Source of the DNA: Candidatus Heimdallarchaeota archaeon | GTDB lineage: Archaea; Asgardarchaeota; Heimdallarchaeia; Heimdallarchaeales; Heimdallarchaeaceae | Length of the DNA stretch: 21,747 nt | Direction: 5' to 3' | NCBI GenBank assembly: GCA_018238545.1 | Contig: JABCTC010000052.1 | Coordinates: forward strand, 1 to 21,747 | Part shown: piece after piece, positions 977-15,876 of the stretch | Layout: every line of letters starts with the position of its first letter | Numbering within the stretch: the stretch's first letter is position 1 | The notes under the pieces: generated by a model | The model's input: the letters and a program-made list of their open reading frames with translations, nothing else | What the model was told of the DNA's origin: nothing | The model's database searches: none | Program-made: the position numbers and the translations under genes

Positions 977-2425
977 TTACAAATTCAATAATTTGTGAAA
1001 ATCTATCTTTTCATACTTCATTATATCTATCAGATTTTCAATATCATCTTTTTCAAGAGCTGCTCCAGGATATTTAGAAAGTAATTTTTCTACTCTTTCT
1101 TTTGTTCTTTGTCCAGTAGATTTTCTCCCCTTGTTTATCCATTCTTCATTTGTTGACCGATCAACAACAGTACTTGGCAAATAAAGTTCTTCTCTGAACC
1201 ACTTCAGTGTATGGTCGTGTGATAATAAATGTGTTTTCTTATCGAATTCCTTGAGTAAGTTCTTTGCTATTGGTTCATCTCTTTGTGTGATTCCTTTAAC
1301 GAATTTATAGGTCATTCCTGCGATTTCATTGTCGATTACCACTTTTTGAATACTTTGTGTTGATTCAAAGTTCATCATTCCTGCACCAGAAATCATATTA
1401 ACGCCTTTTATACCAGCCAAAAGAGATCCCATTCCTGTTTCAAACCCTGCTTGACTATCCAAAATTTTAGCATCTGACATTCCTAGATATGCATGTGTAG
1501 GTAGATTGAGATATTTACCAATTTCTACATACCCTAAATCCATGAGGATTGTATCAACCGAAGCTAAGTACATTGTCCCTTTTCTCATATCAAATGCTGC
1601 TGGTGAACCACCCCAAATTACTGGAGCACCAGGAGATACAATCTGAGTAATTACCAATCCTGCTAATGTTTCTGCTGCATGTTGAACGATCGAACCAAGT
1701 ATAGTCACTGGAGCAGTTGCACCAGTCATCGGCATAGAAACAAACTCAGATGGGATACCATATTTTGCACAATCAATTATGCTCTGACATGTTAAATCAC
1801 TCCATTTGAGTGGTGGAGATGGACATGCATCAAATATCGCCAAGGGTTTCCTCCTTAATTCTTCCTCACTTCCTCTTACAGTTACAAGCATATCCTTCAT
1901 CACTTCGAAAGATTCCTTGACGAATGTTCCTGTTACTATTGGTTTCTTTGAGTAAATCAATGCGATTAATAACCTATACCTATCACTAATCTTTTCAGGA
2001 ACATCTGAACAAGTTATAGCCGTACTTTGTGCGTGAATGTGTTCTAGTTGGTCAACTACTTTGGTAAAATCAACGAAATCTTTTGTAATTGCTGCTCTAA
2101 TCTCATTAGTTTCTTTGTCTAACACATTTAGTGCAGCTGAACCAGGATCAAAACAAATGTTATCTCCCCCGAGTTCTGATACTAAATCTCCTTCTCGATT
2201 GTAGAGGGAGATTGATTGAGGAGCTGTTTTAAGAGATTTCTTTACCAAGTCTCTTGGGATGAAAGCTTTCTGAGTCTCTGTATCTACATTGATACCTGCA
2301 TTCTGTAATATATCTACAGCTTCATTGTTTTCAACAAAGAATCCTATTTCTTCTAATATTTCCATTGCTTCTAGAACAACTTTCTCTTTCATATCTTCCT
2401 CAAGAATCTTGATAATTGGTCTCAT
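977..2425 (-). CDS. mttB: Trimethylamine methyltransferase (MttB) superfamily protein, non-pyrrolysine type (MtgB-like quaternary-amine:corrinoid methyltransferase)
   Basis: 482 aa with family motifs CPSPPLKW, MPMTGATAPVT, SDAKILDSQAGFE, GAGMMNFESTQSIQKVVIDNE. The residue before SDAK (Pyl in Methanosarcina MttB) is Met, and there is no in-frame TAG. Confidence 0.9.
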   Translation of the reverse strand: MRPIIKILEEDMKEKVVLEAMEILEEIGFFVENNEAVDILQNAGINVDTETQKAFIPRDLVKKSLKTAPQSISLYNREGDLVSELGGDNICFDPGSAALNVLDKETNEIRAAITKDFVDFTKVVDQLEHIHAQSTAITCSDVPEKISDRYRLLIALIYSKKPIVTGTFVKESFEVMKDMLVTVRGSEEELRRKPLAIFDACPSPPLKWSDLTCQSIIDCAKYGIPSEFVSMPMTGATAPVTILGSIVQHAAETLAGLVITQIVSPGAPVIWGGSPAAFDMRKGTMYLASVDTILMDLGYVEIGKYLNLPTHAYLGMSDAKILDSQAGFETGMGSLLAGIKGVNMISGAGMMNFESTQSIQKVVIDNEIAGMTYKFVKGITQRDEPIAKNLLKEFDKKTHLLSHDHTLKWFREELYLPSTVVDRSTNEEWINKGRKSTGQRTKERVEKLLSKYPGAALEKDDIENLIDIMKYEKIDFHKLLNL

Positions 2426-2515
2426 AATGTGTTCCTTTTCCGTAACTTCATACTTACTTATTCATAGAAGAATAAAAGTGTTATTTGAAGAACTTCAACT
2501 ATTTAAGATACTTTT

Positions 2516-3178
2516 TCAGTTGTCTTTTACTCTCCTATAAGCGCAATTAACCATATCACAGGTTTCGCATCCTCTTTCTCCTAATTCTTGATCAATTTCT
2601 TCCCCTATGTTAACTGCAAAAGAGACTGATTTAATTGGATGCATCATTTTTGAATCACTCAGCGAAACACCAATTTTCTCCGTACTTACTAAATTAAATA
2701 TCATTTCTTGACCTTTGTCTAATTCCCATTGACAATAACCAGGACTAAATCTAGAGGTAACTAATTTTTCCGCAATTTCATCCTTTAAATTCTCTAGAAT
2801 TATCCTATTTACGCATTCTGCGGTTTTTTCAGCTGCATGAGATGCTATAGCATCAATAATAACTCCCTTGGATAATTCACCTCTGGAAATGAATTGGGAA
2901 CCTCTTACTTCCAGTGCCTTCCCAATTGTACACACTGCTAAAACAGTTTTTTCTGATTTTTTGAAAAGGAAAGCTGGTTTTAGTGATGCACTCTCAAAGA
3001 CATCATAAATCCCCATGGGTTGAATTATCTCCAGTGATTCTATTGTCGTTTCACGAATTTGTTCAAGCAAAATGTTGGATATTTTTTTTTGTCTCTTCCG
3101 ATTTCCTTTACTACTGCTAAGCAGTCTCAGAATTTCCCTTTCATCAAGTTCAATTTGGATGTTATCAATTAGTTTCAC
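2516..3178 (-). CDS. Stand-alone B12-dependent methionine synthase activation-domain protein
   Basis: Motifs AVCTIG, IDAIASHAAE, RFSPGY, M(M)HPIKSVS and a C-terminal CETCDMVNC. The GTG start overlaps the upstream TGA (GTGA, 3175-3178). Confidence 0.85.
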   Translation of the reverse strand: MKLIDNIQIELDEREILRLLSSSKGNRKRQKKISNILLEQIRETTIESLEIIQPMGIYDVFESASLKPAFLFKKSEKTVLAVCTIGKALEVRGSQFISRGELSKGVIIDAIASHAAEKTAECVNRIILENLKDEIAEKLVTSRFSPGYCQWELDKGQEMIFNLVSTEKIGVSLSDSKMMHPIKSVSFAVNIGEEIDQELGERGCETCDMVNCAYRRVKDN

Positions 3179-4068
3179 TTTTTCTCCCTCTTAATTTGAT
3201 TTGATATCTCATTAATGAACTTAGGATTTGAACCACAACATCCTCCAACAATTGTAGCTCCATTTTTTATCATTTGTTGGATGTCACGAGTAAATTCATC
3301 AGGTTTTGATAAATAGATAGTTTTGCCTTCAACTAATTGAGGTTGTCCTGCATTAGGTTTTGCTATTATTGGGAGATCAGTGCTATTTGCAATTAGAGGA
3401 ATAAGATCTACCATCTCTTCACTACTTATAGTGCAATTTGCGCCTATTGCATCAGCACCTGCTTCTTCTAACACTTCTGAGCATTGCTCAATAGAGTTAC
3501 CCATAATTGTGAAGAACCCTCGCTTGGTTTTTTTGTAAGTTATCGATGCAAAAATAGGGGTGTTTGAAACTCTCTTGGCAGCTTTAACCGCTATCTCTGC
3601 TTCTTTGAGATCTACCATGGTTTCTATGAAAAAGAGGTCTACATCAGCTTCTGCAAGAATCGTTGTTTGCTCAATGAAACTTTCTATTAATTCCTGTTCA
3701 GTTATTGAACCAACGGGTGGTAGGAATTTTCCTGAAGGACCAATATCTCCTGCAATGTAGCCATTAGGGGGGCAAATCTCTTTAGCCAGCTCCACAGCTC
3801 TTGTATTATACTCTTTGACTTTATCTCCATGTCCATGAGCTTCTAATTTTAATCTTGAACCTCCGAAAGTGTTAGTAAGCACGATGTCTGAACCAGCACT
3901 AAAATATTCTAAGTGAATTTGTTTTATTTTTTCAGGTTGAGTTATGTTCCAGCTTTCTGGTGGTGTTCCAGGTTGTAACCCTAAATCTATAAGTCTTGAA
4001 CCCATCGCTCCATCTAGAATTACAAAACGTTCTGCAACTAATTCAAGAATTGGTTTCTTTAAGCTCAG
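3175..4068 (-). CDS. Homocysteine S-methyltransferase domain protein (split MetH-type)
   Basis: The conserved N-terminal ILDGAMGS motif begins upstream of the ORF-track start (4005). Also TNTFGG, GDIGPSG, IETM and Zn ligands GANC and GGCCG. Proposed CTG start at 4068, 6 nt after GGAGGT. Confidence 0.88.
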   Translation of the reverse strand: MSLKKPILELVAERFVILDGAMGSRLIDLGLQPGTPPESWNITQPEKIKQIHLEYFSAGSDIVLTNTFGGSRLKLEAHGHGDKVKEYNTRAVELAKEICPPNGYIAGDIGPSGKFLPPVGSITEQELIESFIEQTTILAEADVDLFFIETMVDLKEAEIAVKAAKRVSNTPIFASITYKKTKRGFFTIMGNSIEQCSEVLEEAGADAIGANCTISSEEMVDLIPLIANSTDLPIIAKPNAGQPQLVEGKTIYLSKPDEFTRDIQQMIKNGATIVGGCCGSNPKFINEISNQIKREKK

Positions 4069-4083
4069 ATGAATACCTCCTCG

Positions 4084-4716
4084 CTACTCCAATAGTTTTT
4101 TAGCTAGTTTAACTGCACTAACGGCATTTTCAGCGCTACCATCTGCTCCTATCTCCTCAACCCATTTTCTAGAAACAGGCGCGCCTCCAATAAGAATTTT
4201 GTATTTGTTTCTTATTTTTCTTTCTTTTAAGTTGTCAATCAATCTTTTTTGACCTACCATAGTCGTAGTAAGAAGTGCAGATATACAGATTAATTGTGCT
4301 CCTACTTCTTCTGCTTTATCAATGAATTTATCCACAGGGACGTCTGCTCCTAAATCAAATACCTCAAATCCTTCTGCAGACATAATAGCAGCAACTAGTG
4401 TCTTTCCGATGTCGTGAATGTCTCCTTCTATGGTCCCAATTACAACTTTGCCTAGATATCTATCTTCCTTATTTTCCATTATCTTGGGTTCAAGGATGGT
4501 CATCGCTGCTTTCATAGCTTCTGCGCTGCGCATAAGTTCAGGAAGAAAAAACTCTCCTTCTTCAAATAAATCTCCAGCTTCTCTTATAGCTTCTGAAAAT
4601 TGATCGATAACTAGGTTGATTTCAAGATTATCGTTAATTGCCTTACTTGCAAGAGATTCAGCTAGTGAGATGTTACCATTTAGTATAGCTTCTTTGTATT
4701 CTTTTTCTATGATCAA
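4084..4716 (-). CDS. Methyltransferase cognate corrinoid (B12-binding) protein, MttC/MtgC-like
   Basis: GDIHDIGK (DxHxxG cobalamin motif), DLGADVP, SALLTTTM, IGGAPV and cap-domain FFLPEL. Likely TTG start at 4716 after GGTGG (alternative 4728). Confidence 0.92.
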   Translation of the reverse strand: MIIEKEYKEAILNGNISLAESLASKAINDNLEINLVIDQFSEAIREAGDLFEEGEFFLPELMRSAEAMKAAMTILEPKIMENKEDRYLGKVVIGTIEGDIHDIGKTLVAAIMSAEGFEVFDLGADVPVDKFIDKAEEVGAQLICISALLTTTMVGQKRLIDNLKERKIRNKYKILIGGAPVSRKWVEEIGADGSAENAVSAVKLAKKLLE

Positions 4717-4814
4717 AATAACCACCAAGGAGTTACTAATATAGACAATCTACATGTTATTTAAATCATTTCTGAGGAAAATGCTAAAATAATTTCACAA
4801 AAAACTTGACTTTT

Positions 4815-6684: not shown

Positions 6685-7068
6685 TTATTTTTTGTCAACT
6701 ATTGTAGTTCCAAAAGGCGCAAAAGCAATTTCAATCATTTTGAAATGTTGCTTTGCAAAAGGAATGCCAATTATTGTAATTGCAAAAATAATACCCACTA
6801 TTATATGCGAGATTGCAAGAGCCAATCCGAAAACGATGACCCAAAGTAAATTGAGAATGAATCTTCCTGCACCACCTTCATTGCGTTTAACTTCTCTCCC
6901 AAATGGCCAAACGACAAAACCTGCCATTTTAATACATTGAACACCAAAAGGAATTCCAATAATTGTTATACATAGAACAATTCCTATAGTTACCCAAGCT
7001 ACTGCTGTTTCAAGACCTCCGAGAATAACCCAAAGAATATTTCCTAATAAATTTAGAGTTTTACCCAT
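6685..7068 (-). CDS. yccF: YccF (DUF307) domain membrane protein
   Basis: Two internal repeats N(I/L)LWV...ITIIGIPF...(W/A)PFG. Confidence 0.9.
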   Translation of the reverse strand: MGKTLNLLGNILWVILGGLETAVAWVTIGIVLCITIIGIPFGVQCIKMAGFVVWPFGREVKRNEGGAGRFILNLLWVIVFGLALAISHIIVGIIFAITIIGIPFAKQHFKMIEIAFAPFGTTIVDKK

Positions 7069-7155: not shown

Positions 7156-7224
7156 ATTACGTCTCGGGACAAAAATATTTTTATAGCTGCCTGATCAACG
7201 TAATATTGTCTCGGGACAAAAATA
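7156..7224 (+). promoter_or_regulatory. Putative promoter with operator: 17-bp perfect direct repeat flanking a TATA box
   Basis: GTCTCGGGACAAAAATA at 7161-7177 and 7208-7224, TATA-like TTTTTATAG at 7178-7186 between them, and inverted ATTACGT (7156-7162) / ACGTAAT (7198-7204). Confidence 0.7.
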
Positions 7225-7225
7225 A

Positions 7226-8092
7226 GTGATGACTATGAATGATGAAAAGAAGAAAAGCCCAGGAAGACCAAGAAAATATGATACTAACGCAGAGCGAAAA
7301 AAGGCCTATCGTGAGCGTAAGAAAGAAGCTCATAGCAATTTGGAAGAACGGGCAAAAAGAATCACAGAATTAAAAGGAAGAATTGATAATATGGAAAGAA
7401 AATTAGTGAAATCGACTTACACAGATCAACATGTACCTGAAGAAATTTCAGAAGTCCATGAACAAATTAAAGATCGTTCTAGGAAATATGCTCCTTCAGA
7501 GCTAATGGATTTAGAAATTCATGAGCTTAAACGTATACAATCTGGTATTTACTCTAGATATCATGGAAGCTTCTACAACCCTCTACGTGCAGCGCTTGAA
7601 AGTGCTATAATGCCATCGGTTGACAAAGAATTTGATTCTAGAAAACAGAGTTTAGGAGAAAAACCTTACGAAGTTGTAGTTAAAGAAAAATTAGCTAAAT
7701 CGAGTGATGAAGTTACCCCGAAAACAGATATGAAAACAGAAGAATATATACAGAAAGCTAAGGAAAAAGGTTTAGAGGTTTCTGATGAGGATTTATTTGT
7801 TAAACCATCTACGATGGAGAAGAAAAATATAACGAGTCCCAAGCACTGGAAATATTTGAAAGATATATATAGGACAGATCAATTATTCGAGGTCTTTCAA
7901 GAACTGATACTTCTCTATACAGTAGAAGCAGAAATATCTAGACGAGAAAGAGAAGTTGTTCAATCTATGGATATCGAGAGATTAGAGAAAAAACAAATTG
8001 AACTTGAAAAAATCATGAAAGATGATACACTTAGACATGTAAAATCCACTGTGAACAAGATGAAAGCAAAAAAGAAAAGTGATAAAAAATGA
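7226..8092 (+). CDS. Putative DNA-binding coiled-coil protein (GRPRK motif plus bZIP-like basic region and zipper)
   Basis: PGRPRKY, then N21-x7-R29-x9-L39-x6-I46-x6-I53-x6-L60. Highly charged helical remainder with a second heptad region and a basic tail. Start could be 7226, 7229 or 7235. Confidence 0.75.
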   Translation: MMTMNDEKKKSPGRPRKYDTNAERKKAYRERKKEAHSNLEERAKRITELKGRIDNMERKLVKSTYTDQHVPEEISEVHEQIKDRSRKYAPSELMDLEIHELKRIQSGIYSRYHGSFYNPLRAALESAIMPSVDKEFDSRKQSLGEKPYEVVVKEKLAKSSDEVTPKTDMKTEEYIQKAKEKGLEVSDEDLFVKPSTMEKKNITSPKHWKYLKDIYRTDQLFEVFQELILLYTVEAEISRREREVVQSMDIERLEKKQIELEKIMKDDTLRHVKSTVNKMKAKKKSDKK

Positions 8093-8095
8093 GAA

Positions 8096-8162
8096 ATATA
8101 AATTGTGAAACGAAAATGAATTGTAAAACGCACACGGAAGAAGAAATAGAGACCAAAGGAGG
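8096..8162 (+). promoter_or_regulatory. Putative actin promoter, tandem repeat and Shine-Dalgarno
   Basis: ATATAAA at 8096-8102 after a purine run, AATTGT(G/A)AAACG at 8101-8112 and 8119-8130, and GGAGG at 8158-8162 before TTG 8172. Confidence 0.5.
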
Positions 8163-8171
8163 CATCTAAGT

Positions 8172-9308
8172 TTGTCGGACGAACTTCATACCAAGCCTCT
8201 GGTCTTAGATAACGGAACTGGATATACTAAAATAGGTTTCGCTGGTGAAGATCAACCAAGAAGTGTTTTTCCAACTCTGATAGGTTATCCTAAAAACCCA
8301 ATAGTTATGCCTGATGTAGAAGCCTACTTCAGAGAATACTATATTGGTGAAGAAGCTATGAACTTACGAGGTGTTCTCAAACTTCAGTATCCAATGGAGC
8401 ATGGACAAGTTAAGGACTGGCAAGCAATGGAACGAATCTGGCATTATATTTATTATAATGACTTAAGAGTTAATCCAAATGAGCACCCAGTAATGTTAAC
8501 TGAACCACCTTTAAACGATAAAAAAAACAAGGAGAAGATGGCCGAGTTAATGTTTGAACAATTTAACGTTCCAGCCATGTATGTCTCCATGCAAGCAATA
8601 TTGTCTCTATATGCTTCTGGTAGGACAACTGGACTTGTTATAGATGCAGGTGATGGTGTAATTCATATCGTTCCAGTTTACGAAGGTTTTGCTATTTCTC
8701 ATGCGATACATCGTTCAGATATTGGTGGGCGAGATATTACTAACTATCTTAGAACCCTTTTGAAACAACGTGGGTATTCATTGACAACCAGTGCTGAGAA
8801 AGAAATCGTTAGAGATATCAAGGAACGACTCTGTTACATAGCTCTTGATCCAGAAAAAGAATTGAAGCTTGCAGAAAAAGTTTCAGGAATGGAGAAAGAT
8901 TATACCATGCCTGATGGCGAGGTTATCAACATAGGATCAGAACGTTTCATGGCTCCAGAACTGCTCTTTAGTCCAGGTGTTATTGGTTCTGAGGAAGAAC
9001 CGTTGGATGAACTAATTTATAGAATGGTACAGAATTGTGATGTAGATCTACGTCGAGATTTGTTTTCAAATATTGTACTTTCTGGTGGTTCAACAATGTT
9101 TCCAGGACTTAAAGAACGACTACATAAGGAATTAGTAGAGCTTGTTCCTGATACAACTGAAGTGAAGATAATCTCTCCTCCGGAACGAAGATACTCCGTA
9201 TGGATAGGCGGAAGTATTCTCAGTTCTCTTAAAACATTCAAGAAATTATGGGTAACAAAAAAAGAATATAAGGAGAATGGTCCTTCAGCTGTTTATCGTT
9301 GTATCTAA
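8172..9308 (+). CDS. Actin, Lokiactin/Asgard conserved-actin type
   Basis: 378 aa with DNGTG, GFAGEDQPRSVFP, YPMEHG, LTEPPLN, LSLYASGRTTG, DAGDG, TTSAEKEIVRDIKE, LSGGSTMFPG, PPERRYSVWIGGSIL and C-terminal RCI. Confidence 0.97.
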   Translation: MSDELHTKPLVLDNGTGYTKIGFAGEDQPRSVFPTLIGYPKNPIVMPDVEAYFREYYIGEEAMNLRGVLKLQYPMEHGQVKDWQAMERIWHYIYYNDLRVNPNEHPVMLTEPPLNDKKNKEKMAELMFEQFNVPAMYVSMQAILSLYASGRTTGLVIDAGDGVIHIVPVYEGFAISHAIHRSDIGGRDITNYLRTLLKQRGYSLTTSAEKEIVRDIKERLCYIALDPEKELKLAEKVSGMEKDYTMPDGEVINIGSERFMAPELLFSPGVIGSEEEPLDELIYRMVQNCDVDLRRDLFSNIVLSGGSTMFPGLKERLHKELVELVPDTTEVKIISPPERRYSVWIGGSILSSLKTFKKLWVTKKEYKENGPSAVYRCI

Positions 9309-9311
9309 ATC

Positions 9312-10647
9312 TTATTTCTCAATTTTTTTCTTTTTTTTCCAAATATAACCCGTTATTACAATTGTTCCAAGTAATGCTACTCCAGCTGATATTGAGCTGA
9401 TAATAATTGTGAGATTAGTTGATGTTCCTTCAAAGATGTCCAATGCTTTTGTCATACTACTTAAATAACCCTCAAAATCTCCTTCAAGAAATCTGTTAAT
9501 TGCCTCCTCCTGAAATCTCTTGGACTTTGCTAGAAATCTTTCTGTATTGGTTGAAGAATGATCTCCAATCATTTCTTTATTGTATTCCCAAACATTTTTC
9601 GTCAGATTAATAGCTTGGTCAAAATTGTTTTGAGTAGTTGTAATCTGATAATAGTCTATTGAGCACCTATCTCCTACGATTCCCCATAGGACGTTAGGAT
9701 TTGTAGTCCCCCAATAAACAACAAACCCATTATTGTGATTCAAACCATTATGAACACTTTGAGAAGTTTCTTCACTTGTATTTATACAGTAAGTAATTGT
9801 TGTCGCATGAAACGACCAAGGTGTTACACCACCCGTCGATTCTGATCTTATCCAACCATATGGATGAAGGTAAAATTCGATAAGATAGTGTATTAGTGGT
9901 CCTATGAAAATCGATCGAGCAGGTATCCCAAGTGACCTTAGAAGAGCAACTGCTAGATTTGCTTTACCAACACAAACTCCTGTCCCTTCTTGTAGAACTG
10001 TAAGAGCATCATGACCAGAGCTGTAACCAAATATAAGTTCGTTTCAAGTGAAGTTAGCTATAGATTCAGCAATAATTAATACGTCTGTATCACTTCCCAT
10101 AAGTTCTTCAGCTTTAGAAACTATTTCGGGATTTTCACTTTGGACATACTCGGTATTGTCCAACCATCCAACCACTTCTTCAGGCAAAAGATGCTCTGGA
10201 GTTATGGAAACACCTGAGGGTAAATCATCAAATTTGTTGTATTCAATAAGAACTGGTACATTCCAGTAAATATAAACAACATCTGTATTCTCTAGATTAC
10301 TTATTGAAACTTCCAGAAGAGCATTTTCAGAAGGGTAATCGGACGATATCCTATAATTCTCTATGATATCTACTGGATCAGAACGAACTGAAAGAAGTAT
10401 TGGAGCTTGATTTAGGTGGGCAATAGGTATGTGCATATAAATCTTAAATGGACCAGTATCAGGTGTTGCTGCCTGGACAGCAAAACATCCAGAAACATTA
10501 TACAGATATATTTAATTTTTCAACGGAAGTTGTTTGTTGGGAGTTTATTGCAGATGATTCAAGTGATGAATATTGAGTAGAAGTTAACTGAATTCCTATT
10601 AGCAAAATTATGAAAACAAATTTTAAAACATTTCTGGAATTATGCAT
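9312..10647 (-). pseudogene. Interrupted secreted, membrane-anchored transglutaminase-like protein
   Basis: Signal-peptide-like start at 10647, a frameshift near 10500-10520 and an in-frame TGA at 10046-10044. The frame continues through GVCVGKANLAVALLRSLGIPAR...HYLIEFYLHPYGWIRSE into ORF 9312..9743, which ends in a TM helix plus KKKKK. Confidence 0.8.
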
Positions 10648-10745: not shown

Positions 10746-10931
10746 ATGTCAGTATATAGACCAGATGCTTTCATCTGCAACAATTGTGGACACAGGTTCA
10801 ATAACGAAGAAAAAAAGATTTTGAAGGAGCAAGTTGATGGAATTTTCACAAAAAAGACAGTTTGTCCAGAATGTCTCTCTGCAGACATTAAAACAACAAT
10901 TACGGGACAAAGAGATCCTGACAATTCTTGA
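10746..10931 (+). CDS. Small Zn-ribbon protein
   Basis: CNNC...CPEC, with a TATA-like AAAAGTTATATT about 30-40 nt upstream. Confidence 0.7.
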   Translation: MSVYRPDAFICNNCGHRFNNEEKKILKEQVDGIFTKKTVCPECLSADIKTTITGQRDPDNS

Positions 10932-13932: not shown

Positions 13933-15876
13933 ATGAGTTCAATTGAAGAAATCTGCGAAAAATACGCTGTTCAAAATGCTTTAGAGCATGGAGAAGCAAA
14001 AATTACCCCAGTAATGAGAATAATAATGGTTGCTCATCCTGAATTACGCAAGGATGTTAATAGTGTAAAAATTATCGCTCAACAGAAGATAGATTACATT
14101 AATTCTTTGGAAATCGCAGAAATACAAAAATTGGCTCAAACAAAGTATACTGAACTTCTAAAAGAAGTAACCGATGATAAAGAACCCGTAGAAGGTCTTA
14201 ACTTCATAAGAACAATTATAGAAGAGCACAATAGGACAGGTAGATTCGGTGGTAAAGTTCATACGAGATTTCCTCCTGAACCAAATGGTTGGTTACATAT
14301 AGGTCATGCCTGTTCAATCTTGATGAACCATAAAATTGCCATGGATTATGACGGAATTTTTAATTTCCGGTTTGATGATACAAATCCCATAACAGAAGAA
14401 GAATCATATGTTAATGCAATGATTGAGGATATTAAGTGGTTAGGAGTATACAAGGAATATGAAAATGGAAGTAATAATATCTTCTTTGGATCAGGTTATT
14501 TTGATCAGTTCTATGAATACGCTGAACAATTAGTTGAGAAAGGTTTAGCTTATGTTGATGATTCTAGTGCTGAAGAAATCAAGGAACAACGTGGATCAAT
14601 AACAGAACTCGGAACAGAAAGTCCTTACAGAACTAGAACAATTGAAGAGAACATTGATTTGTTCAAAAGAATGAAAAAATGTGAGTTCCCAAATGGATCT
14701 AAGGTTCTAAGAGCCAAATTAGACATGTCACATCCAAACCTACTCATGCGAGACCCTATCATTTATCGGATACTTCATACTCCCCATCATAATACAGGAG
14801 ATAAATGGTGCATCTATCCTATGTACGATTGGGCACATGGTTTAGAGGATTCTATAGAAGGAATCACACAATCTATCTGCACTTTAGAGTTTGAAGTTCA
14901 CAGACCATTATACGATTGGTTTCTAAACCAATTAACTGACGAGGAAGGTAAACCTATCTTTCATCCTCAGCAAATAGAATTTGCAAAAGTTAATCTTTCA
15001 CATACAGTTTTGGGTAAGCGTGTGATGATCCAATTAGTAAAAGATAAACATGTGAACGGTTGGGATGATCCTAGGATGCTAACAATTGCAGGACTAAGAA
15101 GAAGAGGGGTAACAGCCGAAGCGCTAAGAAAATTCATGGAGACAATAGGTGTATCAAAAAGAGATAAAATTATTGACCAATCTATACTAGATTACTGTAT
15201 CAGAGAAGATTTGAACAATAGATGTCCCAGAGTAATGAGTGTTCTTAAACCTCTAAAGGTTGTTATAACCAACTATTCAGCTGAAAAGAAGGAAGAGCTA
15301 GAAGTTCAAAATCATCCTACTATTAAGGAAATGGGGGCAAGAAAAATTATTTTTTCCAAAACCCTCTATATCGAACAAGATGATTTTATGGAAAATCCTC
15401 CTGAGGACTATTATAGACTTTCGCCTGGTGAAAAAGTTAGATTGAAAAACGCCTACATTATCAAATGTGAGAATGTTATCAAAGATGAAAAAACAGGTGA
15501 GATTAGTGAACTACATTGTTCTTATGAACCTAGACCAGCAGATAGTGCTTCAGATGATTCTAAAGTTAGAGGCACCATACACTGGATTTCAGCTGAAAAT
15601 AGTATAATCGCAGAAGTAAGATTAATTGATAGACTTTTCTTAAAAGAAAATCCAATGGAAACTGAAGAAGGAAAGGTTTTCGCAGATTACATAAACCCAC
15701 AATCACTGGAAATTACAGAAGCACTTGTTGAATCATTCCTGAAGGATGCTAAATTAGGATCAAGATTTCAGTTTGAGAGATTGGGCTATTTCTATCTAGA
15801 ACCAATTGATTCAACAGAAAATAATCTTGTCTTCAACAGAATTATCTCATTGAGAGATTCATGGTCAAAAAGATAG
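13933..15876 (+). CDS. glnS: Glutaminyl-tRNA synthetase with archaeal GluRS-type N-terminal domain
   Basis: NFIRTII, VHTRFPPEPNGWLHIGH, RFDDTNP, WCIYPMYD, SICTLEF, GWDDPRMLTIAGLRRRG, GTIHWIS, FQFERLGYF and FNRIISLRDSW, all typical of bacterial GlnRS. Confidence 0.92.
   Translation: MSSIEEICEKYAVQNALEHGEAKITPVMRIIMVAHPELRKDVNSVKIIAQQKIDYINSLEIAEIQKLAQTKYTELLKEVTDDKEPVEGLNFIRTIIEEHNRTGRFGGKVHTRFPPEPNGWLHIGHACSILMNHKIAMDYDGIFNFRFDDTNPITEEESYVNAMIEDIKWLGVYKEYENGSNNIFFGSGYFDQFYEYAEQLVEKGLAYVDDSSAEEIKEQRGSITELGTESPYRTRTIEENIDLFKRMKKCEFPNGSKVLRAKLDMSHPNLLMRDPIIYRILHTPHHNTGDKWCIYPMYDWAHGLEDSIEGITQSICTLEFEVHRPLYDWFLNQLTDEEGKPIFHPQQIEFAKVNLSHTVLGKRVMIQLVKDKHVNGWDDPRMLTIAGLRRRGVTAEALRKFMETIGVSKRDKIIDQSILDYCIREDLNNRCPRVMSVLKPLKVVITNYSAEKKEELEVQNHPTIKEMGARKIIFSKTLYIEQDDFMENPPEDYYRLSPGEKVRLKNAYIIKCENVIKDEKTGEISELHCSYEPRPADSASDDSKVRGTIHWISAENSIIAEVRLIDRLFLKENPMETEEGKVFADYINPQSLEITEALVESFLKDAKLGSRFQFERLGYFYLEPIDSTENNLVFNRIISLRDSWSKR

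Follow-up and report, generated by a model that had tools for sequence, protein, structure and literature searches.

The ParR adaptors of the R1 and pSK41 type are ribbon-helix-helix proteins, and the archaeal regulators Lrs14, LrpA, MDR1, Phr and TrmB/TrmBL1 are helix-turn-helix proteins. In the ParMRC systems plasmid-borne direct repeats, arranged in series, form part of an autoregulated unit whose order is site, adaptor, actin (PMC4911067). Autoregulated operons are also known from archaea, where the TATA box lies at -26/-27 from the start site and sites placed over the start site are a sign of repression (PMC4158304). Lokiactin is likewise known, as is a patchy history for the Asgard homologues of actin, the others being Arp-like and marked by gains, losses and duplications (PMC9834061). 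The orfA-act2 cassette analysed here is not described in the parts consulted of the same source (PMC9834061), and a literature search on Asgard bZIP and AT-hook regulators and on Lokiactin duplicates, which took in few subscription papers, returned nothing on the cassette or on its regulator family.

The window, meaning the whole stretch of 21,747 nucleotides analysed, is contig C52 of a Heimdallarchaeota genome of 3.63 Mb with 34% G+C. It houses two co-oriented genes, orfA (ORF 7226-8092) and an actin gene (8172-9308), separated by a gap of 79 nt and flanked on both sides by opposite-strand neighbours, yccF (6685-7068) and an ORF at 9312-9743. A preliminary description of this DNA had set out the same order of repeats, coiled-coil gene and actin, with the same spacing and flanks, and this is confirmed; it left a choice between an adaptor linking actin to DNA, as in plasmid partition, and a dedicated regulator of actin expression, taking the latter as the more conservative. 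We consider that the locus is probably a chromosomal, autoregulated two-gene operon, in which OrfA is predicted to repress its own promoter and act2 would provide an accessory variant actin. The nearest named homologues of orfA are from Heimdallarchaeaceae. The chromosomal setting, with a methyltransferase/metallo-beta-lactamase (hydrolase) cluster on one side and DUF389-GlnRS on the other, is the same in about 15 genomes, while the gene immediately upstream varies among orthologues: in the window it is yccF, and in other genomes a hydrolase, a kinase-like gene or something else. In agreement with the earlier remark that mobile-element genes are absent, the ORF list of the window, ten ORFs of which were scanned with Pfam, showed no recognisable integrase, transposase or replication gene.

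Several neighbouring genes may be recorded in passing. At 977-4728 lies a cluster for an MttB methyltransferase (Pfam), a MetH activation domain, a homocysteine methyltransferase and a corrinoid protein, which is kept upstream of the cassette in many relatives. A glutaminyl-tRNA-synthetase-like gene of this archaeal host, whose downstream position is conserved, occupies 13933-15876. The transglutaminase-like gene on the minus strand at 9312-10645 is apparently in pieces (ORFs 10044-10436 and 9312-9743), and G016 and G022 have an intact homologue of 452-462 aa behind act2 or close by. Pfam gave no match for a small Cys-rich, zinc-finger-like ORF of about 61 aa (about 10747-10930, plus strand), which most genomes of the genus have conserved in the interval from act2 or orfA to DUF389.

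Table 1. Coordinates of the features of the orfA-act2 locus, in window numbering
Feature	Position	Strand	Description
Operator 1 (candidate)	7160..7171	.	Palindrome CGTCTCGGGACA, immediately 5' of the BRE/TATA region; about -75 from the ATG in orthologues
TATA-box candidate	7178..7185	+	TTTTTATA, between both palindromes; putative function
Operator 2 (candidate)	7207..7218	.	Palindrome TGTCTCGGGACA across the expected transcription start at about 7208
RBS-like AAGTGAT	7224..7230	+	GTG at 7226 probably part of the RBS, not a start codon
orfA	7235..8092	+	285 aa, likely start ATG 7235; predicted transcription factor
Shine-Dalgarno AAGGAGG(C)	8156..8163	+	For the TTG start of the actin; recognised by sequence and retained in orthologous loci
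act2	8172..9308	+	378 aa, second Lokiactin; PF00022 E 3e-133, 445 bits
T-rich tract	9311..9340	+	Probable archaeal terminator of the two-gene transcript, to judge from its sequence

The repeat is a perfect 17-nt direct repeat, GTCTCGGGACAAAAATA, at 7161-7177 and 7208-7224, its copies 47 nt apart. The preliminary count of only two copies holds for the entire 3.63-Mb genome at up to one mismatch, and no further copy was found near the locus within two mismatches. Such a repeat is by itself unremarkable, as the genome has 44 places where a perfect 17-mer recurs within 100 nt; it is judged to be real because it is conserved before orthologues whose flanking DNA differs. Each copy contains a 12-bp palindrome, (C/T)GTCTCGGGACA (Table 1). 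When upstream regions of orthologues are aligned, TTTTTA(T/A)A(T) is conserved at a constant spacing from operator 1, and the spacing and layout of site, TATA box and site are maintained despite the changing upstream neighbour. Given the usual distance of an archaeal TATA box from the start (PMC4158304), the start site should therefore lie inside the second palindrome, while the first abuts the BRE; palindromic sites at the BRE/TATA and at the start of the regulator's own gene, a feature of autoregulated operons, are present. The GTG at 7226 is probably not used as a start codon, because orthologues align from the Met at 7235.

Exact matches to the site within the genus are nearly all upstream of an orfA orthologue. 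A search of this genome for a wider regulon found none, with 44 near-matches at one mismatch as against 57 in a reversed control, and in view of this lack of excess the site appears to be private, with neither a regulon nor a centromere-like array. T-tracts are found 3' of act2 in five other genomes as well; a scan for bacterial promoters and terminators, which is ill-suited to archaea, gave nothing above shuffled sequences.

OrfA consists of a GRP(R/K)KY arm (GRPRKY in the window, followed by NAERKKAYRERKK), a basic helix running into a coiled coil (residues 18-63), a helical core, and a C-terminal coiled coil (215-284). In the structural model (mean pLDDT 72.7, pTM 0.40) residues 18-63 form a single helix (pLDDT 76-89) and residues 215-284 a long helix, and in that of a short family member the corresponding helix spans residues 17-59 with pLDDT of about 90-97. 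In both models the basic helix is continuous with a heptad zipper, and neither has a strand of three or more residues; the OrfA zipper has L/A/I at R+10/14/17, with a shift of register thereafter. No Pfam family was matched by OrfA at E<0.1, and no PDB entry was matched by either model in Foldseek at E<=0.001. VIA-align returned generic helical hairpins only (best Z 7.0), and the best hit of an ESM Atlas feature search (0.82) was a nameless protein. As modelled, the core resembles the uL29-type arrangement of a short helix and an antiparallel hairpin (TM 0.82 by target over 74 residues; Z 6.9, rmsd 3.2-3.8, 64-67 residues aligned), a generic fold with which unrelated hairpins tie. A candidate WH2 motif, LRHV near the C-terminus, was rejected as it is not conserved.

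The window OrfA gives no bZIP match at the Pfam cut-off, and weak matches to Pfam bZIP_1 were obtained for six of 21 family members, the best with E 3.7e-4. HapX bZIP was matched with E 0.18, and a chytrid (fungal) bZIP-like protein with E 4e-5 in a library of 1.8 billion. The Asn that is invariant in bZIP proteins (N-x7-R) is present in the window OrfA, and across 59 members the position is occupied by N in 17, D in 15, K in eight and other residues in 19. We take OrfA to be a bZIP-like, putatively DNA-binding protein, which probably works as a bZIP does.

A profile search over 399 Asgard genomes detected the OrfA family in 35, all of them from Heimdallarchaeia and belonging to four genera. 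Of 56 family genes, 46 have a YGT-N6-ACR palindrome in the 200 nt upstream, compared with 223 of 2518 control ORFs, and 38 of the 56 have two or more, compared with 11 of 2518; these counts overstate independence because kin share sites and the loose pattern was set after a few short members had been seen. A recognisable site is absent in ten of the 56. Members with an AYRER basic helix have TGTCYCGRGACA; ARQKAYYER is paired with TGTAATATTACA/TGTATAAATACA, that is, TGTA(A/T)..TACA; DRQRAYYER with TGTCTTGTTACA/TGTAACAATACG; and AYHER with TGTAGTGAGAC, that is, TGTAGT..GAC. A tree-distant member from another family (L021) has the same helix and the same site as the window, and a Hodarchaeales-labelled member, checked afterwards, bears both sites around its TATA box. 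That the site sequence changes together with the basic helix is good indirect evidence that OrfA would bind at its own gene. The label 'DNA-binding', which the preliminary description had deduced, thereby gains comparative backing from sites and proteins, and its suggestion of a dedicated regulator with autoregulation at the repeats is favoured by promoter geometry, conservation and this co-variation.

The partners of the family are diverse. Short members (about 200 aa) are mostly followed by a TPR gene of 500-620 aa instead of an actin gene, other members precede SDR genes, and the sites often lie between divergent genes; the actin-linked clade is that of long regulators with extra conserved segments. 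In genus g15 there are mini-members of 50-56 aa (L096, L099, L120, L121) reduced to GRP arm, basic helix and zipper. Several have operators of their own, and they often stand upstream of TPR genes; these are possible dominant-negative or minimal regulators. About 100 small metagenome proteins without names share the GRP-basic motif, most of them lacking the OrfA core. Given this, and the confinement of the family to four genera among those searched, the family is not claimed to be homologous with eukaryotic bZIP proteins or ancestral to them.

The mechanism proposed is as follows. OrfA would dimerise through its N-terminal zipper, placing two basic helices on the 12-bp palindrome, as the symmetry of the site and the co-variation suggest. 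With one site lying over the expected start and the other next to the BRE, the likeliest effect of bound OrfA is repression of its own promoter; activation, too, would be compatible with the position of site 1 on the upstream side of the BRE. The two genes would be carried on one transcript ending at the T-tract, to which the 79-nt gap, the Shine-Dalgarno sequence, a gene overlap in two genomes and the T-tract itself all point. The product of act2 is probably a conditionally expressed variant subunit, or a modulator, beside the housekeeping actin, to judge from its D-loop, and any signal would likely be received by the conserved helical core and the C-terminal coiled coil of OrfA. Since orfA and its sites persist without act2, control of act2 cannot be the only role of OrfA, and a part may be played by the divergent gene or by further targets.

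The genome has three actins: the main Lokiactin (act1), act2 and one Arp-like protein. The preliminary description had asked whether the cassette actin is the sole Lokiactin or a paralogue; it is a paralogue, 82% identical to act1, which is encoded on contig C21 upstream of prefoldin beta and has no operator. The best PDB match of act2 is 9wc4 (HC1 actin, E 7e-187), and its nucleotide-binding and catalytic residues are intact (D13, K20, H77, Q141, D158, D161, H165, GG305-306); Pfam matched MreB_Mbl only at E 0.02 and ParM/StbA not at all. Both copies fall inside the Lokiactin clade of the family (support 99/97), and the second copies form one clade in a first tree (90/99) which is not resolved in a second tree containing saturated rows. 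The dN/dS of act2, about 0.02-0.06, indicates purifying selection and excludes a pseudogene; an assembly duplicate of the main actin is likewise excluded, since the two copies are saturated for synonymous changes and both occur in eight other genomes. The mean dN is 0.078 for act2 and 0.018 for act1. Twenty differences between the copies are fixed, five of them in the D-loop region, where YQIIMT of the main copy is replaced by N/H/Q-P-I/V-VMP, and this suggests that filament contacts may be altered in act2. Thus act2 is a working but optional paralogue that arose inside Heimdallarchaeaceae.

More distant actins were also encountered. Highly diverged ones (36-39%), whose branches are saturated in the trees, lie behind ABC-transporter genes in other genera (L050-L053, in G026, G029, G027 and G025), three of them near DUF389 and none with a regulator or operator. 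A 1.6-kb contig (L054, G019:C391) carries a third actin (67%), which groups with the Lokiactins of another family and reflects either transfer or bin contamination.

A second close Lokiactin is present in nine genomes of the genus, in all nine directly behind orfA, and in two the act2 start overlaps the orfA stop; none was seen in the genus without orfA. The reverse does not hold. Full-length orfA occurs in 17 genomes of the genus, of which nine have act2 and six lack it, one has a TnpB-type insertion sited at the Shine-Dalgarno sequence of the actin, and one has orfA in another context. In the six lacking act2 the next conserved gene, the small zinc-finger-like ORF, is in place and synteny is intact. 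Conservation of the neighbourhood, which the preliminary description had proposed as a check, therefore stands for the second Lokiactin and fails for orfA, which at least six genomes retain without act2. There orfA and its sites are kept under selection, and no relaxation of selection on orfA was seen after actin loss, dN/dS being alike with and without act2 in the few pairs compared. In G008 and G024/G028 only decayed or deleted actin remnants are left.

One cassette of the sister genus has its actin reduced to a stub, fused at a short shared sequence. The stubs (L018:2404-2537 and L019, in G024 and G028) join about 20 N-terminal codons to about 30 C-terminal ones across a common stretch, translated as TGFTK or as LASLKT according to the frame; the arrangement looks like a microhomology deletion. 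A second sister cassette, present in two genomes and on one metagenome contig, consists of a diverged regulator and an Arp-like actin that is likewise diverged and has lost catalytic residues (E/S/Y/D-type changes). Two metagenome contigs have the same two types of cassette. At L045:6901-9396 (G024) an operator pair stands before an ORF of 172 aa, divergent from GlnRS and with no Pfam match, which is followed by a diverged regulator and an Arp-like actin. The orfA and act2 trees disagree in the grouping of G000 and G011, pointing to exchange within the genus or to mixed bins. G011 has two orfA starts with identical leaders (L034 and L048), and its complete orfA copy is close to that of the window genome although the species is distant, so that it is a mosaic allele or the product of a mixed bin. 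The linkage of orfA and act2 is old but loose.

Three other readings of the locus have to be weighed. In that drawn from plasmid partition, OrfA would link the repeat DNA to act2 filaments and so move the chromosome or an element. The order of site, adaptor and actin together with autoregulation does resemble parMRC (PMC4911067), act2 has kept its catalytic residues, and a complex prediction described below gives slight encouragement, yet the two sites are isolated and flank a TATA box rather than forming an iteron series, the chromosomal position is constant, the actin has been lost repeatedly and is absent from most family members, some of which have TPR partners instead, and the actin of a sister cassette has lost catalytic residues. 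Also, the actin is a Lokiactin and not a ParM, and OrfA is all-helical, with no strand of the ribbon-helix-helix kind. We regard partition as highly improbable, and do not favour this half of the earlier choice. It is distinctly improbable, too, that act2 is a passenger which borrows the promoter of an autoregulated regulator whose real targets are itself, the divergent gene or others. The genomes without act2 and with intact synteny, the mere remnants in G008 and G024/G028, the TPR and SDR genes behind other members and the sites between divergent genes would all be accommodated by it; but the link is older than the split of two genera, includes stop/start overlaps and is encountered again with a diverged actin; every second Lokiactin seen in the genus was accompanied by orfA, and act2 is under strong purifying selection.

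The remaining reading would add to operator binding, not replace it. OrfA might bind act2 or the main Lokiactin and alter its hold on the operator accordingly, giving feedback from the level of actin, with the short relatives using their co-encoded TPR protein in the same way. A prediction for two copies of OrfA with act2 scored 0.46, against 0.00 for the best of three controls; the runs agreed in at least 55% of contacts, with a partner pLDDT of at least 79. Among 80 solved complexes 58 attained the mark for such scores, and among 110 mismatched pairs two did; as the passing scores of 0.60 or under comprise seven of the 80 solved complexes and both mismatches, 0.46 is a weak pass. The hydrophobic cleft of actin takes many helices, which makes a pass of this kind easy to obtain. 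The extra conserved segments of the long, actin-linked clade and the sister cassette, where regulator and Arp-like actin have both diverged, would fit such contact, and binding of the main actin would explain why orfA is kept after the loss of act2. Against it, the tree disagreement at G000 and G011 is unexpected for a tight pair, the WH2-like LRHV is not conserved, and orfA has similar dN/dS whether act2 is present or absent. On balance this feedback reading is rather unlikely. Its fullest form, in which a bZIP-like OrfA binds both operators and actin, transcription of the accessory actin responds to how much Lokiactin there is or to its state, and evolution has swapped the partner (actin, Arp-like or TPR) and rewritten the operator along with the basic helix, is quite unlikely; it would be an archaeal analogue of the eukaryotic G-actin/MRTF-SRF loop.

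The autoregulated operon that we prefer would provide, for the control of cytoskeletal genes in Asgard archaea, a concrete unit of regulator, operator and actin, open to in vitro work that needs no culture. A transcription-factor family of Heimdallarchaeia is defined as well; it seemingly reads DNA by a basic helix and zipper, not by a helix-turn-helix, and its natural series of helix/operator pairs predicts a recognition code. In act2 the locus offers an archaeal example of actin duplication accompanied by D-loop divergence.

Compared with the ParMRC systems of R1 and pSK41 (PMC4911067), the cassette is alike in combining a cis site, a DNA-binding protein (here predicted) and an actin-fold ATPase in one autoregulated unit. 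It differs in having no direct-repeat series and no plasmid, an adaptor of another fold, and a true actin that is dispensable; neither a tandem-repeat parC, nor a ParM-family ATPase, nor a ribbon-helix-helix ParR, nor a plasmid or mobile element was found. Compared with Lokiactin (PMC9834061), act2, of 378 aa, has all the nucleotide-binding motifs, but unlike the main Lokiactin it is a recent family-level duplicate with about fourfold faster dN and a Pro-containing D-loop, patchy in distribution and tied to a regulator. With eukaryotic bZIP proteins (Yap1/Pap1/HapX; PF00170; PDB 7aw7) OrfA shares a basic helix passing into a heptad zipper and a palindromic site, the likeness extending to the A-[YF]-R-E-R-K motif and the R+10 hydrophobic register. 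It departs from them in retaining the invariant Asn in only 17 of 59 members, in having Arg for the bZIP Ala at N+3, and in its GRP N-terminal arm, extra helical core and second coiled coil; the site of its family is a 12-bp TGT-N6-ACA, whereas bZIP cores are TGA(C/G)TCA or ACGT. The archaeal autoregulatory repressors Lrs14, LrpA, MDR1, Phr and TrmB/TrmBL1 likewise have palindromic operators at the BRE/TATA and start, and in them, too, the regulator is the first gene of its operon (PMC4158304). From these OrfA is set apart by matching no helix-turn-helix family, by its predicted long helices, and by having a cytoskeletal gene as its presumed target.
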